A stretch of 64,000 nucleotides of DNA, taken from Ascidiella aspersa. Lineage: Eukaryota. Of the stretch, positions 5,471 through 56,115 are shown in pieces. The position numbers and the translations under genes were made by a program. Every line of letters starts with the position of its first letter. Within the stretch, counting starts at the first letter, position 1. The DNA lies in NCBI GenBank assembly GCA_963924565.1, contig OZ004612.1:30752001-30816000 (forward strand). The letters run 5' to 3'. Below the pieces are notes generated by a model. It was not told the origin of the DNA. It saw nothing but the letters and a program-made list of their open reading frames with translations, and did no database searches.

Positions 5471-5617
5471 TATATTTAAAATAGGTTCGTCTGGCGTATA
5501 TTTCTTCAACCAACGGTTCGGCTTTCTATCCGGCAACTTCCTGACGAAGGCTTGTCGGATAGTAAGCCGAAACGTTAGTAGAAGAAATATACGCCAGAGG
5601 AACGTATTTTAAATATA
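5471..5617. repeat. Fold-back palindrome containing a hammerhead-like core (Penelope pLTR-like)
   Basis: Arms of ~65 bp are inverted copies. CTGACGA (5541)-A-GGCTT-loop-AAGCC-GAAACGTT lies on the plus strand. AGATGTACAAT direct repeats at 5461-5471 and 5646-5656. Confidence 0.75.
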
Positions 5618-7045: not shown

Positions 7046-10000
7046 TCATTATATGGTTATGCTTTGTATTCAAGTAAAATAAAATTAACAAAGTTCTTTA
7101 AAAACGTTGCAACAAGCTCTGTCGTGCAAGTTCTTCTTTATATGACGCATATTCCTACTAGCTCCTTCGTTTGTTCGTTGGTTGCTTCAAGGCCCTCTCC
7201 GCAGAGAAAAGGCCGGTGCATTTTTCAAATGCCTCCTGTTTATGACGTAATAATCGTTGTGGTGTCACAGGGGAAACCAGTTCGTGTTTACTGCGGAAGT
7301 TTTTGCGCCTAGCTGCCTTGGAATAGACCTGGTCGGGAAATAAGCGAGGCTGTGTTGCAAGGTTTCAGTTTATTGAGAAATGTCAAAGTAAACAATAAAG
7401 TAGGCAAAGTTGTTAAAGAAAAAAGTGTTTTCTAAGAGTAAAATTTAAAATCTAGTAACAATATCAAAGCCCATACAGAAGTAGATATCATTTTAAACGT
7501 TTCGAACAAATCTTTATTTATTTTAAACAATTAACATGAATAAAGAGATATTCGAAACGTTTATAATGCTATTTACTTTTATATGGGTTTTATATTGTAA
7601 CTACGTCGCACGACAACCTCCAACCGTTATGCTCCAAAATTTGAAATCGTTTAAAAATCGGAGTTAAAAAAGACGAGTAATTTCGACGATTTAAAATGCA
7701 ATTCGGCATCAATTTCGACAGACGTTTCAATAGTCATTTGTCTAAACGACTTAAGTCAAGTCAAGTTATGCTTAAACAGCGAATTTTGAATAAATCAACA
7801 TCATACTGACAAAGACATTTCTATACGAACTTGTATCATCTTCAGTTATGCGTTTTGAAGCAAATTTATATAAACTTGTTAAACAGCTCTTCTTGCTTTT
7901 TTACTCAATCGTTTCGACGTCCTGCAATTCGCCGGAACGTGTTAGTCCCTCAAATGCACGTAAAGTACACACAGGGTTATGTAAGACCGGATAGCGCCTT
8001 GCTTTAACCCATGTATTTGTTGGGTGGTAATCACTTGTTGAACTTTGTCGTTGAACCCCTGAAAGTTCAGCCAAGCTGCCTTGTTTACTTCAAGCAAACA
8101 AAATGATAAATTGTCGGTGAGGAGCGTAAATGTATGAGCAGTGTGTCAGTCGTTTCTGAGGACTGAACAGACTTTGAATTATAGCTTACAAAATATAGCA
8201 GAGAAATAACATTTATTATTTAGATAAGGGTTTCCAATTTTTTTGTAAGACTGACAATGGATTTTATTGTGGTTTGCGTGTACCAGGGTGGACGTGAAGT
8301 TTTTTTCCAAGAGTACGTCGTAATACAAGAAGACTTGCTGTTTTCGGTATTTTTAAACTTAAATCGAATATATCCAAGGGTATAATTTATTATTTTTTAA
8401 GCATATATTGTATAAATCTATCGATTTTATTTTGGCCCCTAAAACTGTTCCACGTACCCCTAAAGCAGTGGTTCCCAAACTGTGGGCCACAAGACTATTT
8501 TCATTGGGACATAGAGCTATTGGAAAATATTGCATCTAAATATGTTATGTTTTACGGTATAACTGTTAGCATATTTAATTTTTTTAAATTGGAATGAGGC
8601 CATTTATTTTAATTGGAATGAGGCCATTTGTTGGCTATTTGTAAACTATATACTTAAAGGCAAAATCTCTCGACACGTGTTTGTTTCACTACGCAGTTAG
8701 CACGGCAGTCAACTTAAAATTCAGTTTCTTGTCATCGAGATGTTTAATTCTAATCTACAAATAAGCCGGAACCAAAAAGGATTATTTAAATGTTGTTAAA
8801 AAATATTGAGTAAGACATTTTTGTTGTCATTTATTGACAGGACGTTCATGTTTTAAGTTGTAATACAAACTGTTCGTATGTAAAACGAAAAAAAACTGGC
8901 TTTGTATGTGAGTTTACCTGCTACCCTATTTAGCACCCCTAACTTTTCTTTCAAACTTACATAAAACCTTACACGAAACTTTTAACAGACAACGCACTAA
9001 ACTACCCAGAGGCAAAAAAGCAATTTGTAATGTCAAAGCACAAATCAATTTATCACTAGCGCCATTCGATACTGAGCCCCATTAGCCTATGGACCCATGT
9101 GCGTCACCCACCAGTTGTAGGGGCGCGATTTATGTCTGGAGGTGATAAGTGTAACACCCCAAGGTAACTTACCCCCTAACCCCAAACCCACACACCCATG
9201 CTCTGCTAAACCAACAAGATATTTCGAGCATGAAACCTGTCGCTTCACCCGTTGGAAATAATTTAGCCGAGGGTGTTTTTAGGGGTACAGTGGGTGACAA
9301 AAGCGGGATGAAGGGGTTGATTTATTTTTCCCCGTTCGGCAATATTTTTACTCTTAAAATCCGTTGTTGGTTATTTTTTAATATTTTGAGAAAATATTCC
9401 CTTCTAAACGGGAAAGTGTATTGTATTTTTGCTTAGTTTGTCATTTTCCTAATTTGGTTTAGTGTTCCAATGTTAAGTTGTTCTTCTAGGACCTTTCGGG
9501 TTCATTTTTCGAGTCGTCGGTAATTTTTTTGGGGGGTTAAGTCCAATTCAAAACAATGTTTCTTTGGCCTGCCCTTACCCAAGAATTTATCGTGTTCAAC
9601 ACGACCGTTATATTCTACTCTAATTCCCAATGCGCCACAATACCTCAAACCCATTTCGCCCCTGCGCGTTTATCCCAGCCTCGAGTCCCGCCGGCTTTAT
9701 TTACAGCAGACGTTCAAACCGGAGATAAATAAAGGCGGAGGTAATCGACTCCTCAAAACACAGCAGACGTCTGGCCCTGCGCTCACACCGCTTCACGCAG
9801 TCGCCCGTGCAACCGCGCGCCAACCGTTGTGAAGTCGCGCTCATTGCGACAATTCGTTCAGCGATCAAGTTTTGAGCTTCATTCTCGGCGCGTCGGTAAC
9901 CTGAGCGCCTCCTTCGCCGCCGCTCGCTTATTAAGCGTCGCGCGCTAGCCTTTGTGACGTCACCTGGCCGATTGTTAGCGGCGGGTACGTAACAGAGACC

Positions 10001-11130
10001 CGTCTCTGGGAAATGGTCATTAGGCTTGGAGCGTGATTTGAGAAGGCAGGTTTTTTTTCGATTACGCCCGAAAAACGAGTTTATTGCGGCGGAAATGAAG
10101 CGGTGTGAGAATAAGCGCCCCCTCAAGGTCGTTCCAAAGTTAGTCGCGAGATTGAAGGTCGTGCCAAGGTCGAAAATCTAATTGGATTAGAAGGTCGCAG
10201 TTTGTCGCGCCGATTGCGATTTTGTGAAGCTTTACTTACGGCCACTTTACTTTTGACACGCACAGGTGTAGGGCTGATAGTTGTATTTTGTGGTAAACTG
10301 AACTCTCAAACTGGTTGGATTCTGAAAAGCTGAAAGCAAGTTTGTCTTACTGGAGTAGGAAGCATTTTGAACGTTTCGAATATCTCATTTTGATTGAAAA
10401 TGACTAAATATTTATTCGAAACTTTCAAAATGCTACCCAATACTTCTGAATGGGCTTTGATATTCTTACGAAGTCTAACTACAACCTCCAGCCATTATGA
10501 TCGAAGGTCACCTTGAAGGTTCTCGCCACGTGGAGTTTTGCAAGCTGCCTGAGATTTCTCGCCACTGTTTTGTGTACTTTTGTGGAAGCTTTTAGATTCT
10601 GCAGTCTGCTATTTTTTAAACCAAAGCGTCGCAGAATTCTCGTAGCCTTTGAACCTAAAGTTTCCCTCTGGAGTGTTACTTATGCACTTCAAAAGTAGGC
10701 AAAATTGCCTTAAATTTATTGAGAATGGAGCTATAAACCTAGAAATGCGAATTGCGATCAACGAAACTTAAGCGTCATGTCGGGCTTATTGTGAAAATTC
10801 TTTGTACCGGAAAACTACGTTTTTTTACACTCTGTAACCTTAAGATTAATTTTAAGATTTCTAGTAAATTCTTTCAAAGCTTGTGTTAAATTTCGACCCG
10901 AAGCAACGACGAGTTGAACTCTAGCGTGAAATCCAGTGCTAGTTTGTTGAGTAAAACGTTAAAATGGCGTCTCACTGAGCACCGAACCTCGCCGGCAACC
11001 CTCGTCTTTCTGCATATGGTTGTTAGTGTTACAACTTGGTGGTAACAACCAGATGAGAAAGCCGTTGAGTTTTCGAGCGGAATGACACCGACGAAGCGTG
11101 CTATAAAATAACCATTAGGAGGATAGTTAA

Positions 11131-11290
11131 AAGTAGAAAAATGTCAAAGCCCATGTAGAAGTAGGCAGCATTTTGTGAACGTTTCTAATGTATTTTTGAT
11201 TTATTTAAATCGTTCACGAAATGCTATACTTACTTCTGTATGGGCTTTGATATTCTTTCTACGTCTAACTACAACCTCCAGTCATTATGC
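11131..11290. repeat. Dominant palindromic dispersed repeat (representative copy)
   Basis: Unit ATAATGGCTGGAGGTTGTAGTTAGACGTAGAA-GAATATCAAAGCCCATACAGAAGTAGG-AGCATTTT-GAACGTTTCGAATA in inverted pairs. Copies at ~7450-7635, 10350-10500, 14090-14210, 21720-21785, 22225-22340, 23340-23460, 27600-27745, 29290-29530, 35650-35800, 37120-37265, 39915-40190, 43975-44210 and 44585-44620. Confidence 0.9.
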
Positions 11291-14200
11291 TTTTAAAAGT
11301 TGGGATTTCCCGTTCAAATGTTTTTTCACTGCATTTTTTACACTAAAACGCGCAGTAACGTCTTGCTTTACCGTGTTGTTTTTGTTAATAATTTGAAACT
11401 CTTGCAAAATTTTTAGTAAAAACATATCTAACATGTATTTTCCAGTGAAAAATGTAAGGAAACAGCCTTTTAACAGTTTCAAATTATATCTATTTTATTT
11501 TTGGTAAAACTTTATACAATTTCAATTTAAGCGTTTATTTTTATGTAAAATATGTTATCTCAATATATTGCTTAACACAAGTAACCAATCTCATATACAG
11601 TATATCAAAGCCTTTACATTGGCCTTACATTCCGTTGTGCAAGCATAGCTTACAACAACACACGGGGGAGGGGGGTATTCCTGGCCGTGTTTTACAACTA
11701 TGACATCACAAACGGGACATTGTCGGGCGTCGCGCGTCGGAAAATGGCGGCTGCTTTGTCGGCGAGTCACGTACAGAGAGAAAGTGGACCGTTTAGAAAG
11801 CCGGAACCTTTTTGTCTTGTTTAAGGCCCACGGCCATTTTTGCTGAAGTGGACTTTTTAATTAGTTTGAACTATCAAAATGATTTTTTTACGCCGCTTTA
11901 ACCATTTTATAACAATATTCGTCACGCTAAACTTTTTTTACAACAACATTTGTTTCTTTTTATCACAATATTTCCTTCAAAATAGTAACATTTTGTCACT
12001 TATTTTGCAACTGTAGCCTATTTAAAAGAACGTTCAAATTTTTTACCCTGCTTTAGCGTTTTTTGAATACATTTCATTATTTCAATATAATTAGCAATAT
12101 ATATCTAGATATATACATTGGTGTATTGGTCATTTAAAACTAGTGAAAAGTGGCCACGTTTTTAACATTCCCTCTCGTGTAGTTACTGGCTGGAGGCTTT
12201 GCAGCTAAAAATTAGGCGGCGTTTTCTACACTTTAAAGATTTAACTCAAATGGCCTAGCCGTTCGAAATTAGCCATATATGTGTCCAAAGCGGCTAGCAG
12301 AAATTAATTAGCGACAGACTGTCATCATTTATAAAAAGTCTGCTTTTGTAGAATCGTTTCGTTGGATTTAACAACTTACCCCTATGCAGTGTTAAAAACA
12401 CCAAAGTGTTTTAATATAAAGGAACCGTCTACCTTAAAAGAAATCTGGCTGAAACAAAAATTTTGCGTTTCCGAGACAATATAATGCCTAAAACCGACCA
12501 AAAAGATAGGTAATGTGTGACAAAAAATGTGGCCTTATGCCTTAAATGTTGAAAAGAACCGGCCTCTAAATGTAGCCACGGATTCTGGCCAATTCCCCCT
12601 TTATCCATTTGTGCGTAACACAAGCCTCGACTCCCAACCTCTTTGTATCGCTTCTGCTTGGTGGAACTTGGTTGGGGAGTTATAACGCCACATATTTCAA
12701 ATGACATAACTTAATAAAACGCACACACCACAGTGGGCCACAGGTTATGAAAACATGCCTCCAATATCCATGGTCAATAGACGCCATGCCTTCCCACAAT
12801 ATTAGTTTTCCTTTTGAAAAAAACCTTATGTTACATGTTGCTTGTGTCATTTTGTGTATTCTTGCGATATTGTCATTTTGTCTACTTTGCTTTTTCGTTG
12901 CGTCATCAAATTTGGTTTAATAAAACACTGAGCAGTAATTCTGGTCAACTGGTGGATGTTGAAGTTAGGTTTTGGTGGAAATTACAATAAAATAAGACGT
13001 ACATTCCCCCTAAGTCTTACTTTATACACTTTTTAATGTCTCTGATAAACTAGTCTATTTATTTCAGTCGGATTTTTAACTTGAACTGGTTGAAAGTGAC
13101 GGAAATAACGTCAACATATTCGTTTGCAGTTTTTCGTATTATTTTTTCTTTTACCTTATTTACAACGCATTTACCCTTTTACATACAACTTAACGCCTAT
13201 ACGACAACCTTGGTTTAATATAGGCGGTTGCTACAAGGTAGTTTACAGTCGTTTAACTCTAAGGTATTACTTTTATCGTTCATTACTAAGAGGCGCACTG
13301 TTGTAAACAAGATATTTTTGAATAAATTAAGCCCAAGTCGAGTCTTTTCAAAAAAATAACATGACAAGTCCCGGTCTTGGTCAATACTTAACTATCATCA
13401 AATATCAGTTAAGTCATTTTCAGGGCAAGTCTACTCTAAGTGAAATCACCGATTTAAAAGTAATAAAAAACTTAAAATTGCTAAACTGCTCCTAATATGA
13501 ATAAATTTAAATAAACATTATTAAAAAAACAACAAGAAGTGATCTTAAGTGCAAAACTTTTTTAAGTGTAAAGAGATATATAAAAGTACAGCGATAAGTC
13601 AATATGGTGTTGATGGTGTATTTGCATGCGGTAACAACAAAGTACAGCGATTTACAAAGCAATGCGTCTTTTTGTTAAAAGCAAATTTACAACTCAAAAC
13701 TGACTTAACATCATGATAACGCAGTGCTTTTTAACCTTTTATGTGGCCAACAAAATACAAGCGTTTATTTTTATTTCATTTAATGTTTCACGGTTTAAAA
13801 TTAACATTTCACCAATTAGACCAAAAGCATTTACAATTTCAAATAATCATTTAAACCTTGGTCTTTTGTAAAAATTTCTGGGACATTAGCAATTCAAACG
13901 GCGGCCCATAGGTTAAAAGCACTGTTACAAGTTTAAATACATTTAAGATGTTTACAAATCACGAGCAATGGTTATACTGAATGCGTGGTAATTATAATAA
14001 TTATATAGACATTATCTGAACTCTAAAAAAGCGCAGTGGAATTACTTGAATGCAAAGTTAACAACAAGAATAATTATAATCGTTGGATCATAATGGCTGG
14101 ATGTTGTAGTTAGACGTACAAGGAATAGCAAAGCCCATACAGAAGTAGGTTGTTGAAAACGATGCATTTAAAGCTTTCAAAATATATGGGCTTTGATATT

Positions 14201-14698: not shown

Positions 14699-17600
14699 TC
14701 AGTGGTGTCGGCGCACATGCCTGGGTTTCTGCTTCGGCTTTGGCCACTTGGGCCTCACCACCCTTCCCATGAAAAGCACAGCTCCAGTCGGTTCGTGACG
14801 GATAAAGAACATGAATGGCCTGTCTATGCGGACATCGGTGGGGATAATCCGGGCAGACACCCCCAAAGCAGTGGCAGCGACCGCTTTTACCCCCTTTTCA
14901 TCAACCTCAATAACCGCTTTATGTGCCGCGTCGCTAACATACAGTCCTTCCATGTCTGTAAGCCCGGATAGGTCCGCGTGGTTTTGTGAAAAGATGTCGT
15001 TTACTCCAAGGCGCTTTAGTGATGTTTTCAAGTCTTCTAGCCCGTGTTCAACTTTGAACTTTGGCATTTCAACCCTGCATGGCCCCATGTCACGGCCGTT
15101 ATAAACCAATAGACGGTCGAGTTGTTCTCGGATGATGTCTTTCGATTGCGGATTAGTCAGGTGCGTGAAGTTGCCAGCTATGTGCGGCATAACGACCACA
15201 AAGTTCAACTCATGACCTGCAGGAGTATAGGATATTGTTAGCCGTGCTGGTTCGTACCGCTTTGAATGACGTCGTTTTATATGACTTAACCCAGCGTTTC
15301 TCAACCGTGGCCCTCGGAACCCCAAGGGGCCACGGAGCAGTTTTCAGAATATAGCAACAAAGGTTTGAATTTAAACAATAAAAAAACAGTGGTGGAAATA
15401 AATAGAAATTTCAAAGATTTCAAAGATCCACAGGAAAATACCCGCTTCTGCCACGGAGCAGCCACAAGCATATCTCAGTTTACTAATTAGCGTGTTAAAG
15501 TATTGTTTGTTTGTTTTTTGCTATGGCTTTAGAGACCTGTCTTGATATGTTATTTAAAAGTGTTTTTCGAATTACCAAGGTGGACACATAGTGTTTAGTG
15601 CTTATGGAAGGGGCCACGACTTTTTCAAGGTTGAAAACCACTGACCTTACCATACGTCCCGATTAAGGCGGGACAGTCCCCATTATTAGGGCTTTGTCCC
15701 GGCTTCACAAATAATTCCTAAAATATTCCGCTTTTTAGTCAGACAATATTTTCTAACCCGCACAGATGTTTTTGGTACAATAAGCATGAGTTTGTTGACT
15801 TAAATGCCGGTTTTTATACAATTGATTAGCGTTTAAACTTTAAAGTTACTTAAACCAAAGTGGAGGAAACAAAAACGTCATATTTAATTAATTTAAAGTT
15901 TCTCTCTTTGGTAATTTTCGGGCCTTTTCTATGTGTCCACAGCCTAGCAATGCGTCTTTTTACTTTTTACCTTTCTACAAACGCTAGTTTTTTATTATAG
16001 CACCCCAAACGTAAGCTACGATTCCGCCTGTGTATGTATTGTATACAAAGTTGTTGTTGGGTTGTTACCCATGTAACACGGAACGGAAGTTTTTGGACGC
16101 CATCTTGTTTTGCTTTTAATGTTTTGATTTTGTAGTAACCAAAAATGAGTTAAAAGTTTTACTCACAATTTCCAAAACAGCTAACGACTGTATAATGCGG
16201 GGTAGCTTACAGGCACAAATTTTGTGGCATTATCGAATTTATGACGTCATTGGGTTATTGACGTCATCCATTTTTTCATTGACGTCATTGCATTATTCAC
16301 TGATCTGCATGATGCTTGGGTATATATACACGGATCTGAAATGTAGCTTGATAATGAATTGCAAAGCCAAAAAGGTCGAGTAGATCAACATCGTCTTGAT
16401 TATTAAGACGTTTCGATACGAACTTGTATCTTCATCGGTTAATACTTTACGCTTTTTATTAAACAACTAAATTTAAAATGCAAATTTAAGCTTAAAGTTT
16501 TGCCCAACCATGCACCAGACATTTGACTGTGTACAATCACACTAGAGTTTTCTGTACAGCTGCAAGTTGAAATACAGGAAGCACTTTAGCGCCAAGTGCC
16601 CCGTAGTGCATCGGCAAGTGCCCGCTCCGGCTGCTTTCTTGGCTTAATTGTGTTAAACTGACATGTTGTTGTTTTTGGCGCCCCATTGAAATGATCGATT
16701 GCAATCGCGGTATTGTTCTTATAATCCCAACTTGTCAGGCTTGGGCGATTTTTAAAGCACTTTGCGGCTGAAATGTTCAGGTTTTTTAGAATTGTAACTT
16801 TATGCGTTTGAATGGCTCATGTGGAATTAGTGTAGCACGCATTTTTAACCTTGCACTTGTTCGGACAATGTGTTTGTTTTTCACATTTGAACCAAAACAA
16901 ATCTGTTATCAAGCTTAATTTCTGCATTATGTCGTCACAGTTAACGCTGTGTCGTCACAGTTGTGCGTTTTATTCAAAACAACTGGATTGACAAATGTGC
17001 AAAGGCGTTTATTAGGTTACTTTGAAATAATAATAACGCGAGTTTTTTCGGTGCATTTCAACTTTCCTCGGGAAACCCCGACTCGCGTCACTTGTTACGT
17101 CACAAAGCGCAACAATATGCTGTTATCAAGCGTCATAATGGAAAGCACCCAAATGCTTCGGAAACGCAAATGGTGATTTATCGCAAAAGGGCCACATTGA
17201 GAACCATCTCACCTTTTGTTTTCAAATAAACTCGCCAAACTACTACATGTCATGAAATGTTTGGTTTGTCACTACAAAATTCTTTAAATTATTAAAAAAG
17301 TATTTGAATTTATTTGCATTTAAATAGAAAAACTTTTGCATTTAAATAGATTTACCTTAAAAACTATATTCAAAACACGTCAAGTGATCCAATTTAGAGT
17401 TTTTTTGAAACCCAATAAATGTTTTCTGAAAATTCTTTATATGCCTATTTTTTTTATAAATACCCTGGTTTGCTCGTGATTAACACGTGTTACAATAAAA
17501 TGCTTTAAACTGACCTAACCTTAAATCTCATTTATCCAAGTCTTAAAGAGGAAATGAGCTAGTGTTTGTGGGTCCACGAAGGCCTTTTTGAAATATTTGT

Positions 17601-20600
17601 GTAGGTAAAAAAAACGTTTTAGCACCGATATATTTAGACTCCATTTCAGTTTCACATTTTTTGGACTGAAAACAACAGGTTTCCGAGGTCTGCTTGTTTT
17701 ATGACGTAAATTTATGACGTCAGCTTTAAAATTTTATGCCCAACCATCGTCTACGCCAGGGTTCCCAACCTGCGGTACGCGAAGGTTTTTTGGAAGGTAC
17801 GCGGTAGCTTTTGTTTTTCACACAAAACTAGATTCGGAGCTTAATATTTTGTTTATCTGGTTTCGTTTATTCCCCCGAGCCCATTCTTAGTACGTAACTA
17901 TGGCTGTTGTTTCGTAACATTACGATGTTCAAAACACAGGCCATGTCAATTGTCGACAAGGAGCACAGTTGCTTTGTAAAGTGTACAACGCTGTGGGACA
18001 GTGGGCGTTATTTATGTCAAATGCTTGCTCTTGATAGATATCACGCTGTAGTGTTAATTTAGTAGGCCAATATTATTATTCTGAATAAAATATGATTCAA
18101 TCAAATTAATTGTTCTGCGAGAAATGGTACGTGTCGCAGTACAGAGCGTCCAAGTGGTACGAGATCGTAAAAAGGTTGGGAACCCTTGGTCTACACAAAC
18201 CAAAACTTTTTTTAGAGGGTCCGTGTTGAAAAAGATTAAACATTTTTTTATGGGATTTTTAATGCTTAAGTGTGCCGCGAGACATTTGGCAATTTGTTTG
18301 CTGTTATTGGTAAGCTTTTTGATACAACTCTTTGTGTAGGATTAGAATACAATAATATATAAACATATATTTTCCTATACATTGTGTGTAAGGTTAATGT
18401 GTATTGCTATAATTTCGTTTATTGTGACATAACAGTAAAGCACTTAGCGAAAATTTTAGTAGGGGTGCACCAATATATTTATTTTCTGGGGGTGCGGTAA
18501 GGAGTAAAAGGTTGGGAACCACTGTACTACAGACACTCTTGTCTACCGTGCAGCTGACTGGAAGGTCATTTGGACCCATCGCTGCTACGGCCGTATCGCG
18601 CATCAATTTGTTTCTTCTTATATTTTGTGTATTTTAATTTCAGCGCCAACTGAAAATAAACATTACTTACTTACTTATGTTTGTGTGGTACTTACCAACA
18701 AATGGCAGCACGACAATTTCAGCCTTCAGTCGGTACATATGAACCGAATGACATTTTGCGTCGTATGACGTCATAATGGGTACTGTGACGTGCTCGTGAG
18801 GCGACACTTTGAACTTGCCCTTGAGGTTTGTGGAGGTGAATGAGTTCATCCAAGATGCCTGTGGAAAAACAACTCTTAACTCACTTAAGTACGTTTAACT
18901 CACTTAAGTGCGAGGACGTTAAACTTAAATTCGTTTAACTTGTGTTGTTAAATGTTTTTAGCTTTTTTTGAGCGAGTGCGTTTAGCTACTCACAGTGCGA
19001 GTGCGTTTAGCTCACCTTAAGTGCTTAAGTGCATTAACTCGCTGAATTGATATGAACCCACCTTAAGTGCAAGTGCGTTTATGAGGTAGATCTTGGTGTT
19101 GTGAGTGACTGAGTTGTGAGACACAAGATCGTGTATTTCATCGTCAGTTTGCTTCGAAGCGAACCTGTTCATCTTTCGACGAGCTCGCTGCGGGAAAGCC
19201 GCGAACATTACCTTCTTCACTGTTGCGTTGTTGTGGCTGGGATGGAATGTTTACAATTATGTCGATCTATTTACATCCAATGGTTTAAAAGCGCTGGTTA
19301 AACATATTGCGTCATATTGTTGTAGGGTCATACCATCCTTTGTTGTAATTACCGGTTGGTGTCGGCCTTTATTAACTGACACAAAGGCACTTAGACAGAC
19401 GATCGAATACACGTACCAACACCCGTAAAAATTCACGGACACACGGACACAAACATAGACACATGAACAAACATACGGACACACGAACAAACGTACATAC
19501 ACGCATAGAAACACGGATAGACAGACGTACAAACGGAAACACGGGCACACGAATAGAACAGACAAAAACATGGACACACATAGACACACGTACAAACAAA
19601 CGGACACACATAGACACGCGTACAGACACACGAACAGACTCACCCTATCACACGAAAAACACGTACAGACACTCGGACCCACGGGCACACGAACAGACAA
19701 ACAACAAACGAGCACACATAAACACACGGACAGACAAACAGACAAACGTACAGACACACTTAAAGACACACGAACAGACAAACAACAAACGAGCACACAT
19801 AAACACACAGAGAGACAAACAGAAACACAGACAAATTGACACGCGTAACAGACAGCCAAGTACAATTTAAGCATCAACACAGCTGTTGTAAGACTTTTAC
19901 CTCTTTAGTGTTTTCTTAAAGGACTTAAGAATCCTGACTCCCATGTCGGCGAATATCCTGTTTGCCCTCCTAAGGGTGAGGTTGCCCCCTGGGGCGAACA
20001 CCTGGTTGCAAAGTTCGGCCTCCGCATCTGAGGGTTGGGGAATCCCCTCGAGACGAAGCGCGGCCAAAACCTGCCGCTGGGAGTCGCCACCGAGCCCTGG
20101 TGGTTAAAAATGTTTTTGTGAGAAATTATTGCACAAATATTTTGGGACAGTTTTCTGTTTCCACTTTTCTTTTTTAGCTGAAGGTTACCAGTTTTCAGCG
20201 ATGAGCGTATTGGATGTTTTTTTTGATGGTTCAAAATTTATAAACTGACGTTACCTTTCCTGGCGAAATATATATATCTATTTTATTTTTTTAAGATTCT
20301 TTTATTAGTTTCTGACCTGAATTGCTAGCTTTGCTAGAATATTTTGCTGTTACTGATCAGGAATTAAGGTCTACATTTATCTTGCAAGGGTCAATGTGAT
20401 TTCCAATAATACTTATTCAGTGCAACATTCAAGAAATCATGCACAAATTTTTTGGATAGTTTTCTGTTTTTACTGTTAACAGTTTTTAAAACAGTTGTCA
20501 GCGATGAACGTTCTGGGTGCCATATTTCCTTTGGGTAAAATATGCCACTTTTTGCAAAAAAAGATCAAAACTTAATAAAAGAAGCAATGACTTTAAACTA

Positions 20601-22101
20601 CTATAGTTACTTTAACTTTAACATTCAACCAACGTAGATTGCCTTTGTGGTTCTTGTATTGCACAAAGCAGCAAAGTTTTTACAAAACAGTGGTTTTACG
20701 TTGTTTATGAATGCTTATTTAAAAGGTGTACGATCAAGGACTGTGTTATGTTAAAGAATTCGCTAGCATAATGTTAGTGAAGTACCAAGCCGCCCTTTGT
20801 AGATGCATTGTGTACTTTAGCGTTTTACTAATTCAATAGCTACTTTGACTGGAGCTCTTTTTCAATCACGCTAGTTTAACAATTTAACTGACGTTGATAC
20901 AAGTGCGTATCGGAACTTCTTTATTAAGATGATGTCGATCTACTCAAACTTTTTGGCTTTGTTATTTATTTTTAAACTATGTTTCAGGTCCGTGTTGAGC
21001 CCAACAAAATTAGTTTTGTTGGCAAAAAAACGAAGTTCGACATTATTGTTACTTTAGGACGGTCCCGGTATGACCGAGGTCGTGAGTTCGAACCTCACTA
21101 CAGGCTAGTTTTACAAATAGAATGCAGCAGGCAACGGTGCTGTGGTTGTTTCTCGACTCGCTCCCCTCTGAGCCTGTGTAGCTCAGTTGGTAGAGCGACG
21201 GTCCCGGTATGACCGAGGTCGTGGGTTCCAACCTCACGGCAGACTAGTTTTGTATATTTTTTTCGATGTTTGTTATAAAAGTTGAATGTATAGTCTTAAA
21301 AATGGAAATCAAGTGACACTGTTTAGCTACAAATTGTATTACAATGTTAAAAATATTTTCGCTTTATCATTAAAGATGTTCAAAAGTATTTTTTGTAAAT
21401 AATTCACCTGGGACGATTAGGGAAAGCACCGAAAATATCGAGATTGGCGAAAAGACGAAGTTTTTGTCTTGGGAAAGCCCCTTCTCTATTTCGTGGTTCA
21501 AGTGAAATGAAAATTCGTGCAAGGATCTGGCCACGCGATTCGAGAAGGCGCTAGAGGGCTGGTAGAGGACTCCGTTAGCTGAAATAATAAAAGATAAATC
21601 ATAAAAATTACACTTTTATAAGCGGCTGTTTCAGTAAACCAATCTTTAGTTTAATAATTAGTTATTTTTCTTAATTGTAATAAAAATGCAACTTTGTTAA
21701 ATATGGAAAACAAATCATGGAGCATAATGGTTGGAAGTTGTAGTAAGACTTATAAGAATATCAAAGCCCTTCTGTATGGGCTTTGAAAAGAATTAGTTAC
21801 ACTAAAACTTCATTTTTGGAGTAAAAAAGCCTTTTTGATTAAGTACCAATTTTATTATAAAAAATAAAAAAAAATTAAGTTACACTTTTTTCTTCTTTTT
21901 TTTATATATTCTCTTTCGGTAAAGCCATCTTTAGTTAAAAAATGTTTTTTTTCTTAAAATCGAAATCAGCCGCGAAACAAACTTATATTCGTTTCGGGTC
22001 CAAGTTTTTGAAGCATCGCTAGAAAATATACACAGTTTAAACTTACCTTGAAACACGAAGATTATTCCAAGCAGAAAGCCTAAATATAATGGATTCATCA
22101 T
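14699..22101 (-). CDS. Secreted serpin (serpin A), ~425 aa, 6 coding exons, predicted inhibitory with P1 Arg
   Basis: Exons (minus): 22101-22047, 21578-21408, 20096-19901, 19236-19062, 18858-18696, 15216-14699. All introns GT-AG, phases consistent, total 1278 nt. Signal-like MMNPLYLGFLLGIIFVFQA. Serpin motifs NFVFSPISI, LRRANRIF, IYLINALALKASW, MPKFKVE, hinge/RCL EKGVKAVAATALGVSAR-IIP, IDRPFMFFIRHEPTGAVLFMGRV. Confidence 0.93.
15292..15643. mobile_element. hAT-type MITE in the last intron of serpin A
   Basis: Ends CAGCGTTTCTCAACC / GGTTGAAAACCACTG. Flanks ACTTAACC and ACCTTACC (6/8). Confidence 0.7.
16401..16444 (-). ncRNA. Minimal type-I hammerhead ribozyme-like motif in a ~110-bp dispersed repeat
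   Basis: Minus strand TATTAA-CCGATGA-A-GATAC-AAGTTC-GTATC-GAAAC-GTC-TTAATA: 6-bp stem I, 5-bp stem II, GAAACGUC core with palindromic ACGU. U4 is C here. Activity untested. Confidence 0.55.
17757..18188. mobile_element. hAT-type MITE
   Basis: TIR CAGGGTTCCCAACCT / AGGTTGGGAACCCTTG. 8-bp flanks GTCTACGC and GTCTACAC (7/8). Confidence 0.85.
19430..19860. repeat. CA/CAGA-rich low-complexity minisatellite in serpin A intron 3
   Basis: Mixed ACAC/ACAG/ACGG units. GCACACGAACAGACAAACAACAAACGAGCACACATAAACACAC is repeated. It accounts for several spurious ORFs. Confidence 0.9.
21058..21112 (+). repeat. 5'-truncated second copy of the tRNA-derived element
   Basis: GACGGTCCCGGTATGACCGAGGTCGTGAGTTCGAACCTCACTACAGGCTAGTTTT is near-identical to the 3' two thirds of 21172-21251. 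Confidence 0.8.
21172..21245 (+). pseudogene. tRNA-derived pseudogene or SINE head (anticodon-position GGT), inside serpin A intron 2
   Basis: A-box TAGCTCAGTTGGTAGAGC, stem CGGTC/GACCG with loop CCGGTAT, T-arm GTGGG-TTCCAAC-CTCAC, followed by a TTTT run. The acceptor stem has mismatches, and position 33 is C rather than U. Confidence 0.7.
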
Positions 22102-23935
22102 GTTTATACTGCTATATTAATCTGGAAAAGACGTTGTAAATATAAACTGAAGATATGTTTAATTTAAACACAGAGAAGCATCATCGCATTTATTTAAAAC
22201 TTGCAAGTAACTTGAAAACATCGGAGCATATGAACTGGATGTTGTAGTTAGACGTAGAATAAATATCAAAGCTCATACAGAAGTAGGAAGCATTTTGAAC
22301 GTTTCGAATAACTCTGAGGATAATGGCTGAAGGTTATGACATCATCTCTGATTCTGTTTTAATAAGCTTTTTGGCAGGACTGATGATGCCATTTTTGGCG
22401 TAACTGCAGTATTCTGTCTTTTAATTAAATTGTTTAAATTATTTTCAAACCTTTACGGTTCTTTCTTTTTAATCACATATCTGAATTTTAGGCTTTTCGG
22501 TGAGAAAATTGTTCTATTTTTGCCCCTGCTACGTAGTAAAGTTTATAGAACAAATTTATTCTTACGAAAATGTGCTGCTACTTTTTCTTTTTACTCTCTA
22601 AAGGTTTACAATCTGAAAACGTAAATAATCACTTCCCCAGGCACTGAACGTATTTTTAAATCTCGTTTTATGTCCCAGCAAAAGCTTCAAGCCATTTCCT
22701 TTTACCACCGCATGCTCAGTTCTTACTGGAGCGTGTAATTGGCGGTTTCACACGCTGGCTTGGAACTGCTGGAATCTTGAGCATTTACTGCCAACCTCAA
22801 AATACCCAGGCGAGATTGTTATTGGCTGCTTATTGGCTTTAACCCGATCGCAGCAATAAGCCAGTTATTTGTGTCAATCCAGAAATGGAAAAGCGATCGC
22901 AATATGAAATATTTTTTTGCCAAGTGTTTTTGCACAACAGAAAAAAAATGAAGGAGAAAGCTAAATAGGTCGAGTAACTTGACATAATCTTTGGAAGACG
23001 TTTCGATTATAAAAAAACTTTAAAAAATGATGTCGATTTATTAATATCCAACATACATGAATGTTGTACGAAAAACAAACGTTTGTTTGTAAATTCACCT
23101 TCTTTATCATAACTCCATCTATTTTGGGCGAAAAGCTGGACTATATATTCTCTAACGATTTACAACTGGCATTCTTTCTTTATACTTATTGCTTTGTTTA
23201 ATGAAAAGTAAATTTTCTGCTCCAGAATCTCCTGCTTTTCATCAAACTGTTTTCAAAGTCCAACAAATTACTGTCAATAATAATCTGTTTGTAACGCATG
23301 TTATAAAAAACGAGGCAACTTTAAATTACTGGAAACTTAATTAGTATGAATATCAAAGGCAACACAAAAGCAGGCAAGATTTCAAACGTTCAAGAGATAT
23401 CCGGCACGTTCAAAACGGTACCTACCTCTGTATGAATTTTAATACATCTATTGCAAAGCTTAATTAATACACGATCTCGTTCTACTTGTGGCTCCATATA
23501 ACATTTTCACGGTAATTGCGTATTGATTGCATCCACAAAAACAAACCCATGATTGCTTTTTATCGATTTTAGCGCCCTTTCATTATAATGACACAAAACG
23601 TATAATTCAAGTTAAATGCTCTGTTCCAAAATAATCAATCAATAAGTCAATTCTCGATGAAGCTAGCTCAGCGATCCAAAAAATAAGACAAAGTATAACC
23701 GCTAAGCCTTGTCATCTAACTCTATTCACTGAATATTTGTAAGCTTAAGTTGAACAAAACAATAATACGATAACATCATTAAAATGATTCATGTCTTTGT
23801 ATTTGATTCGGAAAATGTCTTATTTAAAAAAAACATTCTCTTAACTTTTGATATGTCCTATATTTGACGTTTTACTACGGCACCAAATGACTTTATCATG
23901 TTAAAATAAAAAAGACAAAAATTGAAACGTTAAAA

Positions 23936-27162: not shown

Positions 27163-30100
27163 TCATCCAATCGGATTGCCGACTTTTCCCGCGAAAAGAA
27201 TCGCTCCGGTCGCATCGTGACGTAACAAGTAGAGGAAGGGCTTATTGACCTTTTGAACCCGGGTCACGACCGATCTAATTCCGACCGATATGACCGTTGA
27301 CCCCGCCGCCTCGACCCCTTGCTCAGTGGCGCGTAACTTCGCTTTGTGACGTATGTCTTGCACGTGGAGGTGCTCGAAGTTGCTCATGCGTGACAGGTCC
27401 GCGTGCTGTGCGTCAAATACGTCATTGACGCCCATGCGACGTAATACTGACGTCATATCCCTGACGTCATACTCCATCTTGAACTTAGGCATTGTGATCT
27501 GGCACATTACGATCTCACGTTTTCCACGATTGCGATCTAAAATGTAGAATAAGGCAGAAATAAAAAAAAAAGTAATGATAATAACAAAAAACAAATTTTA
27601 AATGCGTAGAATGAATTTCAAAGCTCATACAGAAGTAGGTGGCATTTTTTAAACGTTTCGAATAATTCTTAATATTTTTTCAAAATGCTACTTACTTCTG
27701 TGTGGGCTTTGACATTTTACTACTGAAACCTCCAGCCATTATGCTTCACAGTTTTAAAGGATATTTTGGTCTATGAAAAAGTAGAAAAATAAAAACGTGC
27801 TTAATTAGAAAAAAAATATCAAAAATAGTATTTAACAACTGGACATTACTGAACTTCTTAAAGCATAAGCAAATTTTGACATAACACCTGGAAAAATACC
27901 TTTGAACGTTTTATTTCGCTTGTTTAAACATTATCGCATCTGATCGCGATTCGTTTAGTCCAAAATATCGGGTATCGATATTTGAACAAAATGTCAAGTA
28001 TCGGGCATTTCTAATTTCAACTTGACGTCGTACTGTCTTGTTGTTCCAGTGTTTATAGCAGAGTAGTAACCCACCTTGCCATATTTGGTTGATAAGGTTC
28101 CCAACTTTCTCCACCATAGTTCCATCCTCGTTGTCATAAAGTAAGCTGAAGTTACCTGCCTCTCTTGGCATTATCATCATCATACTGATGCTGTCTGTAA
28201 AAATAACAGATTTTAAACAAGGGTTCTTAAACACAATGTTCTGTTGCGTCGTTTTAATGAATCCATCTACATTGAATTTCGCTAATGACGTGTACATTTG
28301 AGCCTAGTGTTACGAAAAGATAACTGTAGCCATTGATTAATAATGATTTTCTGACACAAACAAATGACAAATTTGCGTTGCTGTGTATAAATTTTACGGA
28401 AAATTAGTTTCTTTAGCCTGATGTGTTTTAAGTTTACAAACTTTTTCTAAAGGCTAGAAAAAAGTTTGATAACTACTGGTTCGAAGGTTTGAATGATAAT
28501 AAGTCAATTTAGAATCAATAATTACAGTAGTCACTGATGTGAATGTTCTATTAAAACAACAGGCATTTTGACGTCACAATGGCTTAAGTTTGTAGCATAA
28601 CTTCTTCATTACAAGGCAACTGACATGTTAACAATTGTTCTTGACGTATTTAAACATCGTGTTTGGAGCACTGATGCTTTTGGCCAGAGATGTCTTTAGA
28701 TTTCGTGTTCTAATGAATTGTTTTACAAGTATTGCTTGTAGACATGTTAAATCGATGGCATTCGTGTGCGGATTTTTTACAAGCTTACATCGAAACATAT
28801 ACTGCAGTTTAAAACTATTGGAGAATCAAGCTTCAATAGCAACTAACGTTGCATAGTAGCTGTATTTTGTGTATTCATTTTGCAGTATTAGCAGCAGACA
28901 GTTACGCTTACAAATAGTCTGTACATCTTGTTTTACATGAAATGCTGCATTGAACTGTCATGTATGGTTTGTTTTGTTTTATCAGCTTTGCTGTCAGATA
29001 CTGGTGTACGTTAAGAGCTCAGCTTTATACAGATAACGCCTATGCAACCGACAAAACAGTTTCCAGCTAATATAAAAAGCCTATACTGGCTGTGTCATTT
29101 CTTTAAATGTGGGCAGAGAGTACAATAGAACCCCGCTGATTCAGTTCTTTCGGCACCAGTTAGTTTCGTTTTAGCACAGAGCATTTCTTCAGCAAGATAA
29201 CTGCTATTGTTGCCACTTCACAAAGCTATAAGCTGTCTTTAGTTACCCTTATATTTTGCATTGTACTTTCATTGAACTAATTGAGGATGCAGTAATATCA
29301 AAGCCCATACAGAAGTAGTTAACATTTTGTGGAAGTTTTGAATAAATCTTGATTCTTGAGATATTGGCTGTAGATTGCATATGCGCGTAAAATGAATATC
29401 AAAGCCTATTCAGAAGTAGGCAACATTTTTTATGTTTTCAATAATTCATGTTGAAAATGAATAAAGAGATAGTCAAAACGAAATGTTACCTACTATATGT
29501 GGGTTTTGATTTCTTACTTCGGTTAACTACATTCTATAATAGAGGATGTAACTTGATGCACACTTCTTGTATAGAGTGATTATGTTAATTAAACCACAAG
29601 ATTACCCAAAACTCGCCTAATGTTGTTGATAAGACAAGTAATGTGAAATGCTAGATATATTTTTTTGCCTAATCGTGTTGTCTCTAAAAATGCAAAAATA
29701 CCGTTATTAGCAAAACAAACAAGTCTTGGATTTCTTGGCTTTCTTGTTTCGTTTAAAATACATTTATTTGCAAACAAACCATACAGTTTTTACCCAAATT
29801 GAAAACGTTAATGTTGCGCAAAGCACTTAGGTAGCTTGATTCGCCGTAGATGACACTTGTATTATAATAGCAACGCAACAATCTGTTAAAAGCAACATTA
29901 AATGCAACAATGTGTTAAATAGCAGCACTTGTGTCATTATTGTTGCTTCCTTATTACCACCCCCACATCCAGCTTTTCACTAAACTGCATTCTCGTATGC
30001 TATGCACTGTTCTACACCGCATATGGATGGCAGTGGATACAGTTATTGTATGTGGGCTGACACTAGCATGTTAAGTTAGCGTACTGTAGAACATTTAGTG

Positions 30101-35618: not shown

Positions 35619-38600
35619 ACCGCACCTGTTATTTTACTAGCGATTTTCGTAATGGTTGGAGGTTGTAGCAAGACGTAGTAAGAATATCAAAGCCCATACA
35701 GAAGTAGAAAGCATATGAATATGTTAAATATGAATAAAGAGTTATTCGAAACGTTCCCAATGATACATTGCTCTGTATGGGCTTTGATATTCTTACTTTC
35801 TTTTCACTTAATAACTTTGGTGTTTGCTAGCAACGCAAAACTACGCTACTTCAAACCTGCATTAAAATCCCCTTAAACCATGCACCTAGAACTTAGAGCA
35901 GCAACTTTTAAACGTTAAAAATATAAAAAGAACCGCTTTTAAAAAAAGAAGAGGCTTCTTTTTGAAACGCCAAGAATGCAAACCTTATAATGACGCACGT
36001 TAAAATACCTGTGGGGTTAACCACCCGTATAATGCTTTCGCTTGGTATATCATTGCATGTTGTGAAGGGCGGTAAACTTGTCTAATCGATTTATGGGTTT
36101 GGTCGCATTTGTCTTTATTATAAGCTTAAATTGTGGTTGCAATGTTAAACAATGTTGACAAGCTTACGCACCACCGTTTTTTCTGGGCAAAGAGTTAAAA
36201 AACACACAATAGCGCCTTTTTATTTTTTTTCTGGTGTATACTTGATTCTAATGCAAATTTAAATGACAAATTTTACAATATTTGCAAGTATTAAAGGCTC
36301 ATTCTAGATCACGTAAAATCGTATCTCAACTACATGAAAAACCTTGATTTTACGCATTTTTTCAATCATCATAGGAACGTGGTTAAATGCGATTTTAAAG
36401 CATTCCAGGAGATAACATGACTTTCGGCAAACAAGCCCTTAGCTTTACAGGACAACACCATAAGCTAATACCACGAAACACAAAATTTAACATCTCAATT
36501 AAATGTTGCTGAATACACTTTAGAATTGTCTTATTTTACAATCTGATACTTGACACTTTTTATATATTAGGAAACCATATTCCCAGCTGTCTCTATATAA
36601 AACCTTATACTTTTTTAGTGTTTTCTACACTCACCTATTTAGCATGTGATCGAAATGCACTTAAAATTAACCTTAACTAAAATAACTTAAAAAAAAACAA
36701 TCCGCATCGTGTATGTACGGCTTGTACGCTTACAACCAACCAACAACAAGTAAGTACCTCATTTCACTATTCCTGCAATCTGAACATATTGCACCTTAAA
36801 AAACAATTTCAAATCGCCTTTTTTTGCAAACTTGCAACACAACAACTCTTCTATTCATCGGGGAACATCGGAGGGAGTCTTGTCCATAACTGCGGTTCAA
36901 GCGCTTCGTAATTACATCTTTGCACCTGACTTAATTGATGCTCTCAGGTTCCACGTTGAGTAAATTGTGGATTAAGTGCTTCGTTCCATCCGCCTTAACA
37001 ATCGGGCGTCTGTTCTGTAGCATTCTGGCAACACGCCGCATTTTAAACTGCAAATTTTATCAAGATGTTCGCTGGCATTTTCCTACAAGTTTCTCAAAGA
37101 GTCCATTCTTACAAATACTGAGCATAATGGCTGGAGGTTGTTGTTAGACGTAGACGTAGAATGAAAAAAACATCTCATACAGAAGAAGTTAGCATTATCG
37201 GCCATTATCTTGTATTGGCATTAAAATTCCTTCTACTTTTAACTACAACCTCCAGCCATTATCTTAAGATTTATCCCAAACGTTCACAAAATTCTACAGT
37301 CTACTTAGTCATCCCACTTTAAAATCCAATTCGAAATGACAATTTTCACCGCTGCTTTTCATATTTATGCTCTTATATTCCATTATTGTGTCACAGTCAA
37401 CGCCACAATGAAGGCATTATCGCGTCAGACAAACCGCCAAGCTTGAAATTCGATGAAGAATTTCTCATTTCTCGCCGCCTGAACGCAATTCAAGTCCGCT
37501 GTGGTCTCCATATGCGCAGATTTAACGCCATCTGCCGAAATCCCGGGGTGCCAGTGAAAAATCCACAGACATTAAGAGCTCTTTCCTCACCCCAGGAATC
37601 GCAGGCTCAATGCTCTATCTACGTCACAGTGCCACTTGTTGCGTCACACTGCACGATAACTCGCTTGGCACGTGTAAATGACGTCACACTTGGCATTGTG
37701 TCGAGACAGGCGGCGATAGTGTGTGTTTGCAAACCTTCCTCTTCTTGATAAGACACGTTCTTTTCAGCCTTTCTAAAAGGTTCTAATTCTGTTGTTGTCT
37801 GAAATGGCTTCTATGTTTGGAATATGACGGACTTGTTAGGCTGTTCTGTGCAATCTCGTGGGATTATGTAGTCGGTAAATATATTGCCTGGAGAAATGCT
37901 ATTTCTGTGAAATCGCAAAATAAGCACGATACCACCCCCGTGTATTAAACTCCCCTTGCGGGCTGCAGCGCAAATATTAGTGCTCCTTGCTTGGCATTTG
38001 TTGTTTGTTTCTAGAGACTAATGATTCCTCATTTTGTGGCGAAACATATTCCTCGTAAAGAACTTATAAATGACTTTGATTAAGACAGAAAAGTGTTAAA
38101 GAATATTTGGTTCTATTTGAAGTAATTGTCATCATTTACGGGATTTTTGAGGGAGAATAAATATCTTGTTTTTACACATTTAGTTTGCCATTGTCCCTTT
38201 GTTTTTTTAGGCTTATTCATCTTTTCTTTGTTTTAGAAGTCTTTATCTGCTGCAGTTACGCAGACGGCTTGGTTTTAAGGGAGAAAGTAGCGGATCTAAA
38301 CACCTTTAACACCAATTATAGCTATTTAATCAATAATTTGTGTGCTCTGAGATTTCGGTGTCATTCACTTTGAAGAAGGCGACTTGAATAGGTTGCAGAA
38401 ACGTTGAAAAAATATAAAATTACTAGAGAGTTTTTTGATTAATGTTATGCCTGGCAACAACAGTTTATATATACTGCTATTGATTTGCCTTCACATTTAA
38501 ACGCCACTCGATAAACTGTTAGAAAACCAATTATAATCAATATTCACAACAAAACACACAAAGCAATCAAAATTCCTAAGCACAGCCAATACTTGAGCAA

Positions 38601-39914: not shown

Positions 39915-40190
39915 TAGTACGAATATCAAAGAGAAAATGTTTGCATTTTGTGAACGTTTCAATTAAATTTTAAGATAATGACTGGAGGTTGTAGTTAGAC
40001 GTGGAATAAATATCAAAGCCCATTCTTATAGAGTTATTCAAAACGTTCGTATACTGCCTTCTTCTCAATGGGCTTTAATATTCATTCGTCGCCTAACTAC
40101 AACCTCCAGTCATTATCTTAAAATTAATTAGAAACGTTCAAAGTGTTTTCCTACTTCTGTATGGGCTTTGATATTCGTACTACGTCCTAC
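39915..40190. repeat. Nested multiple-inversion cluster of the dominant palindromic repeat
   Basis: Outer and inner inverted pairs of TCAAAGCCCAT / ATGGGCTTT and GGAGGTTGTAGTTAG / CTAACTACAACCTCC. Confidence 0.8.
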
Positions 40191-40443
40191 TAAAACCTTT
40201 TTTTTGCAAACCAAAATTATGCTTCAAAAATACGGCTGTTCTCTGAACCAGTAAACAAATTTCACAAAAACATGCTTCAATAGCGTGATTCATAGGAAGC
40301 GAAAATGCGCCAAATCCTCCTTGTTTATTGAAGTTCCGCTTCATGCATTCGTACAAAGGCCTTGTGTCCGTGCCAGGTTTAACCACAAGCAACCATAAGT
40401 CATGCTTAAACGCTCATGTTATTTTAAGGAGATACACCAGGAC

Positions 40444-55435: not shown

Positions 55436-56115
55436 TATATTCATTCTATCAAGCAGAAAACACAGTAAGCTTTCTGTATATTTTGTCTAGTAAAGTAAAT
55501 TATTTCGTTTAAAAGCGCAATTATTGCAAGTTTGAAGTTTTATGTTTTTTACCCTTAAAACATTGTTACATCTGACATTATATATGTTTTCTTGGGCGCT
55601 GGTCTAGAATCAAACCACAGCGCTGAAACAAATATTCAATCAACGCACAATATTTGGGTTAGGGTGTCGGTTATTGTTTGGGTGAGGGTGGGTCAAGTAT
55701 TATTATTAAATAATATTGCTTAACCTACCCAAACGCTAAGAAAATACCTAAATAAAAATATTATACTTATTAATTTATATTCATTCTATCAAGCAGAAAA
55801 CACAGTAAGCTTTCTGTATATTTTGTCTAGTAAAGTAAATTATTTTGTTTAAAAGCGCAATTATTGCAAGTTTGAACTTTTATGTTTTTTACCCTTAAAA
55901 CATTGTTACATCTGACATTATATATGTTTTCTTGGGCGCTGGTCTAGAATCAAACCACAGCGCTGAAACAAATATTCAATCAACGCACAATATTTGGGTT
56001 AGGGTGTCAGTTATTGTTTGGGTGAGGGTGGGTCAAGTATTATTATTAAATAATATTGTTTAACCTACCCAAACGCTAAGAAAATACCTAAATAAAAATA
56101 TTATACTTATTAATC
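55436..56115. repeat. 340-bp near-perfect tandem duplication upstream of the Aurora CDS
   Basis: 55436-55775 repeats at 55776-56115 with about 5 substitutions by eye. Confidence 0.95.

Follow-up and report, generated by a model that had tools for sequence, protein, structure and literature searches.

A minimal hammerhead ribozyme motif in a serpin intron of Ascidiella aspersa and its very probable origin from the end of a Penelope-like retrotransposon

Hammerhead-bearing repeats in the window and their host genes

The DNA analysed here (the window) is a stretch of 64,000 nucleotides from Ascidiella aspersa (contig OZ004612.1, positions 30,752,001 to 30,816,000). It harbors five copies of a short dispersed repeat family with a hammerhead motif, one of them in an intron of a serpin gene and another in a predicted intron of an ankyrin-repeat gene. 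The features concerned are listed below; assignments to a Penelope-like element (PLE) carry the confidence given with the interpretation at the end.

15217-18695 (-): serpin intron hosting the 16.4 kb copy, from a spliced contig of run X3 with GT..AG borders; the flanking exons match Pfam Serpin
16317-16444 (-): very probable 5′-truncated copy of a PLE 3′ end (pLTR), solo, sense in the serpin intron, 89% to a typical family copy over 128 nt
16401-16444 (-): minimal type-I hammerhead motif, by direct reading and BLAST copies
16317-16394 (-): "tail", an open frame probably comprising the first codons of the PLE ORF (M.IYSTFLALQFIIKLH..), with the optional PLE extension of ~30 nt at its end
51595-51956 (+): predicted intron (362 nt) of the ankyrin-repeat gene, hosting the 51.8 kb copy (GT..AG, continuous frame, Pfam Ank)
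51778-51902 (+): sister copy with the same rare core alleles, sense in the ankyrin-gene intron (C3 = 51791, C17 = 51822)
20884-20995 (+): older decayed copy, antisense within the serpin gene (A9, A13 and G16.2 changed)
7788-7848 (-): decayed copy that has retained CUGAAGA but neither the G10.1-C11.1 pair nor the CG palindrome
22957-23007 (-): copy cut inside stem II, lacking the CUGANGA box (BLAST against the window)

Upon re-reading, the minus-strand letters from 16444 to 16401 proved to be exactly those given by an earlier, sequence-only reading of this DNA. The motif consists of stem I, CCGAUGA (U4C, N7=U), an A at 9.1, a 5-bp stem II and GAAA-CG-UC, and departs from the CUGANGA box at U4. 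C3 is located at 16438 and position 4, a C, at 16437; in stem II, 16430-16426 pair with 16419-16415, and GAAA (16414-16411) is followed by CG and then GUC, with C17 at 16407. The perfect 6-bp stem I of that reading is indeed present with six pairs at this site, but the sixth is supplied by flanking DNA outside the element, and stem I of the family comprises 4-5 A-U pairs (TTAA/TTAA).

The anatomy of the motif, together with the parent RT/GIY-YIG element described below, bears out the assignment to the minimal type-I hammerheads (min-HHRs) of the Penelope pLTR kind. This class is defined by four anatomical features (PMC4209133), all of which this family possesses; inspection revealed the extra nucleotide 9/10.1, the G10.1-C11.1 pair and the palindromic 15.2-16.2. 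It follows from the sequence that helix III in a monomer would enclose only two bases and could therefore form only between two copies. An Rfam scan of the window gave no hammerhead family at E<=1; the Rfam models miss the minimal form. The hammerhead was likewise not obtained in monomer folding of the window copies.

The five copies of the earlier reading are all real, the four further ones being recovered by BLAST, but these are more damaged than had been noted. The 51.8 kb copy, which aligns at 51786-51895(+) with 88%, carries the same rare alleles as the one at 16.4 kb, but both its core-proximal stem I pairs are broken (TTTA/CTAA). CTGAAGA is kept near 7845(-), where a canonical copy had been seen, but the G10.1-C11.1 pair and the CG palindrome are gone; near 20888(+), a copy is present but also altered at A9, A13 and G16.2. 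The truncated copy near 23005(-) starts inside stem II, as described. A hammerhead descriptor that requires U4 passed none of the five window copies of the family, and all five are solo, none in tandem (BLAST against the window).

The sense orientation of the 16.4 kb copy in the serpin intron is supported by the spliced contig. Contigs of runs X1-X3 carry this insertion with C4, though one of these runs may be the assembly's own source. For the 51.8 kb copy, the claimed position, sense in an SLF1-like intron, agrees with the intron predicted from GT..AG borders and frame; the PDB matches of this gene include the SLF1 ankyrin domain (8pef_A, E 1.6e-10), which is not the best match.

The window contains further repeats. 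At 21058-21251(+), directly behind the 20.9 kb copy, lies a tRNA-like sequence that scores 32 bits with Rfam tRNA and is partly duplicated upstream; it looks like a tRNA-derived SINE. An abundant palindromic, MITE-like family is found at 7441-7637, 10345-10508, 11124-11292, 22223-22335, 27585-27748, 35647-35799, 39943-40206 and 43971-44210; a mir-3047 match on one of its copies in the Rfam scan was rejected as chance. A recent 340-bp tandem duplication (98.5% identical) occupies 55436-56118.

The repeat family and its parent element

A first search of the genome (308.6 Mb) with a 131-nt query of core and tail gave 2331 first-look candidates, 40 of which were scored. For a core pattern of 32 letters, in which positions 4, 7 and 9.1 may vary, the genome has at least 504 exact matches versus 0 for the reversed control, which places the motif far beyond chance. 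The majority form of the family is TTAA CTGAAGA T GATAC AAGYTC GTATC GAAA CG TC TTAA, with the boxes CUGAAGA/GAAA/GUC. The check proposed earlier, a genome-wide hammerhead search with a consensus, came out in favour of the motif. Canonical U4 is present in 96 of the first 100 core-pattern matches listed and in 131 of 134 copies from samples not selected on the core. Moving the query in 5′ direction, the number of candidates falls from 2331 (core and tail) to 531, 30 and finally 8; most copies are therefore short 3′ stubs.

Walking upstream from the copies led to the parent Penelope element with RT and GIY-YIG domains that the sequence-only reading had suspected. In the upstream-extended copies L046, L055, L095, L098, L099 and L102, an RT is followed by an endonuclease region with a YIGQT motif, and the stop of the PLE ORF lies ~120 nt before the hammerhead core. 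Pfam RVT_1 matches the RT of L098 and L102 (E 1e-7 to 3e-9), whereas Pfam GIY-YIG gave no match on the family's own endonuclease copies. The GIY-YIG assignment is made because of the YIGQT motif and the relation to P0001 and P0002, in both of which RVT_1 and GIY-YIG score above the Pfam cut-off; the endonuclease region of the family is 46% identical to P0002 over 295 aa. A protein search with L102 found 659 homologues. Inspection of the translations revealed the DKG motif (KPDKGNG in L098) and CCHH-type endonuclease residues (C-x-C..EH..RH in L095/L099), and no CX2-5CxxC linker finger was seen in those of the long copies. By these motifs, and not by a tree, the element would fit the Penelope/Poseidon clade of EN+ PLEs.

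A full-length element with two pLTRs was not found among the 32 and 8 upstream matches. The longest copies are 5′-truncated at ~1.9 kb, and all 8 matches to the most 5′ RT stretch are truncated or interrupted, leaving the N-terminal quarter of the ORF unbridged. Another element, whose transposase-like frame of 413 aa we take to be hAT-like, apparently splits one long PLE copy (L101/L214, G000:C7:14.684-14.690 Mb).

The ~70 nt of shared tail behind the core can be read without a stop as M.IYSTFLALQFIIKLHYRSVHSVP, and this frame extends further in L021 and L011. A similar peptide, MSFVSFALAVIFIIRLF, lies behind the hammerhead of a related PLE family, and the tail is best read as the putative N-terminus of the ORF inside the pLTR, with a likely start codon ~13 nt behind C17. 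The 3′ ends of the copies are bimodal: 83 of 331 distinct copies end at reference positions 108-112 and 130 at 138-140. These two preferred ends lie 30 nt apart, matching the optional 30-40-nt PLE tail, which has been tied to two internal RT start sites (PMC11167929). An inverted partner is present in 59 of 90 tail-anchored loci, with three pairs counted from both sides.

Many copies begin immediately ahead of stem I: among L122-L211, 30 of 90 start within 15 nt of C3, 18 of them at -8 to -6. This hotspot sits at ACATTAA, which is preceded in long copies by an acceptor-like TTCTCAG. It could mark the start of the transcript, a site of splicing or of endonuclease action, or the place where the strand folded back.

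In 56 copies of the family, no compensatory stem change was found, as expected of copies that decay from one master. Covariation was assessed between families, with a related PLE family from metagenomes and a second hammerhead family of this genome. The former was found through the endonuclease in 80 metagenome loci, 61 of them with room downstream, and a hammerhead lies ~200 nt behind the endonuclease in 30 of these 61 versus 0 of 3050 shuffles. With the same core, stem I is TTAA/TTAA in our family and TGCA/TGCA in the metagenome family, and stem II GATAC/GTATC and GATAAC/GTTATC, respectively. Stem covariation between families is therefore present, amounting to two or three independent data points, as the metagenome loci look like one family.

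The second hammerhead family, absent from the earlier reading, occupies 5471-5617 of the window. Its core at 5541(+) reads CUGACGA-A, stem II GGCUUG/UAAGCC and GAAA-CG-UU and lies inside an inverted repeat, stem I (as found by the descriptor) being formed by the inversion junction. It has 344 first-look candidates genome-wide, and its stems differ from those of the first and of the metagenome family. A weak endonuclease match (E 0.002) lies upstream of it in L309; it is probably another PLE.

In summary, the family consists of min-HHR-bearing pLTR stubs of a Penelope/Poseidon-type element, new as a sequence family but already known in its arrangement. Newness was judged against published main texts, and supplementary min-HHR alignments may list a closer family; our literature search found no paper on Penelope hammerheads in ascidians.

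Core substitutions, orientation and tandem copies

Changes in the core were counted in loci not selected on it. U4C occurs in 2 of 134 copies, compared to 69 T-to-C changes in 2918 at other T sites, and all core changes (68/1460) compare with 125/3733 in the tail; overall, core decay equals tail decay. Genome-wide, position 4 is other than U at 29 places. C is found at 17 of these, including four copies of one duplicated segment as well as the window pair, so that C4 reaches at most 3.4% relative to the 504 matches, which come from a slightly stricter pattern. In the samples, changes are more frequent at the non-CpG G's of the core (G5, G8) than at those of the tail (32/264 vs 16/401, p=1e-4). 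No such excess over the tail is seen at A, C or U of the core, and that at G8 against a loop G is not significant in a matched genome-wide count (19 vs 12, p=0.28). G5, with 20 changes in 134 unselected copies (14 to A), has the highest non-CpG rate in the core.

Core genotype was compared with orientation on the basis of a Pfam scan that covered 300 of the 4237 candidate frames in 119 loci. A host exon was recognised in 22 distinct loci in this way and in L008 by PDB, resulting in 23 loci. L016 was dropped because its DUF7041 frame was assigned to a transposon, and L060 because its Stomagen match was weak; L081-L084/L026 and L020/L033/L130 were counted once each, and L021, with an exon recognised by eye, was left out. 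"Sense" denotes a copy that has a coding exon on its own strand no more than 1.5 kb away, and not all such copies are proven intronic. Among loci not selected on the core, intact cores make up 5 of 7 sense and 2 of 10 antisense copies (p=0.06, small numbers). The four copies of the duplicated segment (L081-L084, G000:C8:0.72-1.45 Mb) are 92-94% identical and hold a PreP C-terminal exon and an antisense C4 copy.

These data bear on the proposal of the sequence-only reading that U4C is an attenuating change tolerated in transcribed introns: sense copies would cut the host pre-mRNA and thereby be selected for weakening changes of this kind. Such selection would be in line with the sense orientation of both C4 window copies, with the excess change at core G's in the samples, with the depletion of tandem retrozymes from Xenopus introns (according to bioRxiv 10.64898/2026.07.22.740005) and with a considerable loss of in vitro activity upon U4C, a change which is yet viable in a viroid (according to PMC3088659). 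The two C4 copies, however, represent one event, not two, as their joint core alleles are unique: their core exists at exactly 2 genome places, as does its U7/A9.1 part with position 4 left out, and they have two tail alleles in common, five rare alleles in all. U4C itself is found at the neutral rate. The C4 lineages with a mapped host exon comprise one in sense (the window pair) and three in antisense direction. At 9 loci, a total of 10 copies with an intact core and U4 share the strand of a host exon nearby; examples are L008, 40 nt behind a RECQL-like exon, and L122, in a P450 gene. Sense copies are intact at least as often as antisense ones in the sampled loci, a difference that runs opposite to attenuation. 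Furthermore, monomeric min-HHRs are described in PMC4209133 as lacking detectable cleavage, and stem I of the 51.8 kb copy is disrupted in any case. The idea is thus largely refuted by a single origin, a background frequency, intact sense copies and three antisense C4 lineages, and we consider it barely credible. A single ordinary mutation in the common ancestor of the 16.4 and 51.8 kb copies is the likely source of U4C. A C4/U7/A9.1 subfamily was also considered and rejected, the genome search giving only the two window copies.

The short copies had further been taken as a non-coding family of the retrozyme type, which would multiply non-autonomously as tandem units of 150-450 nt via self-cleaved circular RNA. 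By definition, a retrozyme requires tandem units and monomer or circular RNA (as given in PMC7229834 and bioRxiv 10.64898/2026.07.22.740005). L011 does hold one dimer in head-to-tail arrangement, in which the unit measures 162 nt and both cores are intact, the 30 of 90 copies starting within 15 nt upstream of C3 form a discrete short class, and animal retrozymes have been proposed to derive from PLE pLTRs (bioRxiv 10.64898/2026.07.22.740005). Against this stands the outcome of the suggested tandem-copy check, by which arrays are absent: none of the loci examined has more than two units, two same-strand core-covering copies occur in 3 of 90 tail-anchored loci, and all window copies are solo. 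Only 3 of 90 copies begin just behind C17, and the copies end at the two PLE tail sites instead of the cleavage site. They are best described as 5′-truncated ends of a coding PLE, with a tail that would encode the N-terminus of its ORF. On present evidence, including the RNA data below, this is not a retrozyme family, and we regard such an origin as very unlikely. If a double hammerhead is active in this family, or a retrozyme is in the making, the dimer at L011:1501-1764 (G000:C8:7190519) is the natural sequence most likely to represent it; the computed dimer fold lies ~19 kcal/mol above the free fold.

RNA was mapped with 1340 reads from ~6% of run X4 on the long copy L095 at 85% likeness. 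The depth is ~330 per strand over the ribozyme and mostly 0-35 over the ORF, and 93% of the reads extend into unrelated flanking sequence. The family RNA is passenger transcription, both strands alike; the library appears stranded, as judged from the serpin exon. In these reads, no pile-up of starts or ends indicative of cleavage was seen on L095 and no circle-type joint appeared among the RNA joints listed, which speaks against a retrozyme within the limits of one run of standard RNA-seq, a method that can miss small or circular RNA. At position 4 of the 16.4 kb site, where serpin coverage is thin, 7 of 7 reads of X4 have U and stem from other copies, so that they carry no information on this locus.

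Proposed origin and relation to known systems

The repeat very probably stems from a Penelope-like retrotransposon whose ORF combines an RT with a GIY-YIG-type endonuclease, and represents the 3′ end (pLTR) of that element, truncated on its 5′ side; the 16.4 kb copy is likely an inert, neutrally decaying fossil. This reading draws on the observed family size, upstream ORF, motif anatomy, inverted partners and two preferred 3′ ends; the insertion steps are modelled on PAc, the Poseidon element of Anolis carolinensis (PMC11167929). By analogy, the endonuclease of the element would have nicked AT-rich DNA, and reverse transcription would have begun at either of two positions a short way into the ORF and ended prematurely, leaving stubs of 100-130 nt, often with an inverted partner. 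For the hammerhead of the parent RNA, cleavage after C17 would be expected solely in the dimeric form (ACGU paired with ACGU), probably with the help of a protein. In min-HHRs, no cleavage was seen for monomers and low cleavage for dimers (PMC4209133), and that of the PAc hammerhead is reported to be protein-assisted and dispensable for insertion in vitro (PMC11167929). A copy standing alone has no partner with which to close helix III. It would therefore leave the host pre-mRNA uncut, and no attenuation is called for.

The closest parallels are the min-HHRs in metazoan PLE pLTRs (Cervera & De la Pena 2014, PMC4209133), with which the family shares the CUGANGA/GAAA boxes, the extra 9/10.1 nucleotide, G10.1-C11.1, the palindromic 15.2-16.2 and a short helix I, as well as thousands of mostly single truncated copies, few of them in long elements, and inverted neighbours. 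In contrast to those described there, helix II has 5 bp here (7-8 bp in Schistosoma), the sequence family is new and the 16.4 kb copy carries a private U4C. Similarities to PAc (Frangieh et al. 2024, PMC11167929) include an RT with a C-terminal GIY-YIG, a hammerhead at the pLTR-ORF junction with the ORF start beside the ribozyme, two 3′ ends ~30 nt apart and the lack of RNA-seq ends at the cleavage site. The PAc ORF, however, is described as starting at stem II, whereas the likely start here lies ~13 nt behind C17, and no intact full-length copy was found here. The DKG motif, the C-terminal endonuclease with CCHH-type residues, the missing CX2-5CxxC linker finger, the 5′ truncation with an inverted partner and the optional 30-40-bp tail are common to the Penelope/Poseidon EN+ PLEs as characterised by Craig et al. 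(2021, PMC8557442), the clade being assigned here by motif only. With the animal non-LTR retrozymes described by Cervera & De la Pena (2020, PMC7229834) and in bioRxiv 10.64898/2026.07.22.740005, the family has in common a type-I hammerhead in a short dispersed PLE-pLTR-related repeat and the L011 dimer. Unlike these, it lacks tandem arrays, its hammerhead is minimal instead of canonical, and it is contiguous with a PLE ORF and without sign of abundant monomer or circular RNA.

Concerning the window pair, the two copies share no flanks, differ in 5′ extent and lie inverted and 35 kb apart; a search for a segmental duplication around them gave matches only of the element and one unrelated repeat within 2 kb on each side. 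They may be parent and daughter or sisters from RNA-mediated re-insertion of an intronic stub already crippled by U4C, a scenario we regard as rather doubtful. If true, the Penelope RT would act in trans on short solo pLTRs carried in host pre-mRNAs, which would thus move in the manner of SINEs and need no functional ribozyme; the 5′-end hotspot 6-8 nt before the core would be the natural 5′ end of the template.

Min-HHRs in PLE ends are described as massive in number and widespread in metazoan genomes (PMC4209133), and there is little significance in the family itself. The useful result is a negative one: in this family, sense copies near genes show no enrichment of alleles that weaken the ribozyme, in agreement with the view of solo min-HHRs as inert. 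Beyond that, the intact dimer L011, hundreds of intact monomers and the C4 sister pair make the family material for the question of the role of hammerheads in PLEs.
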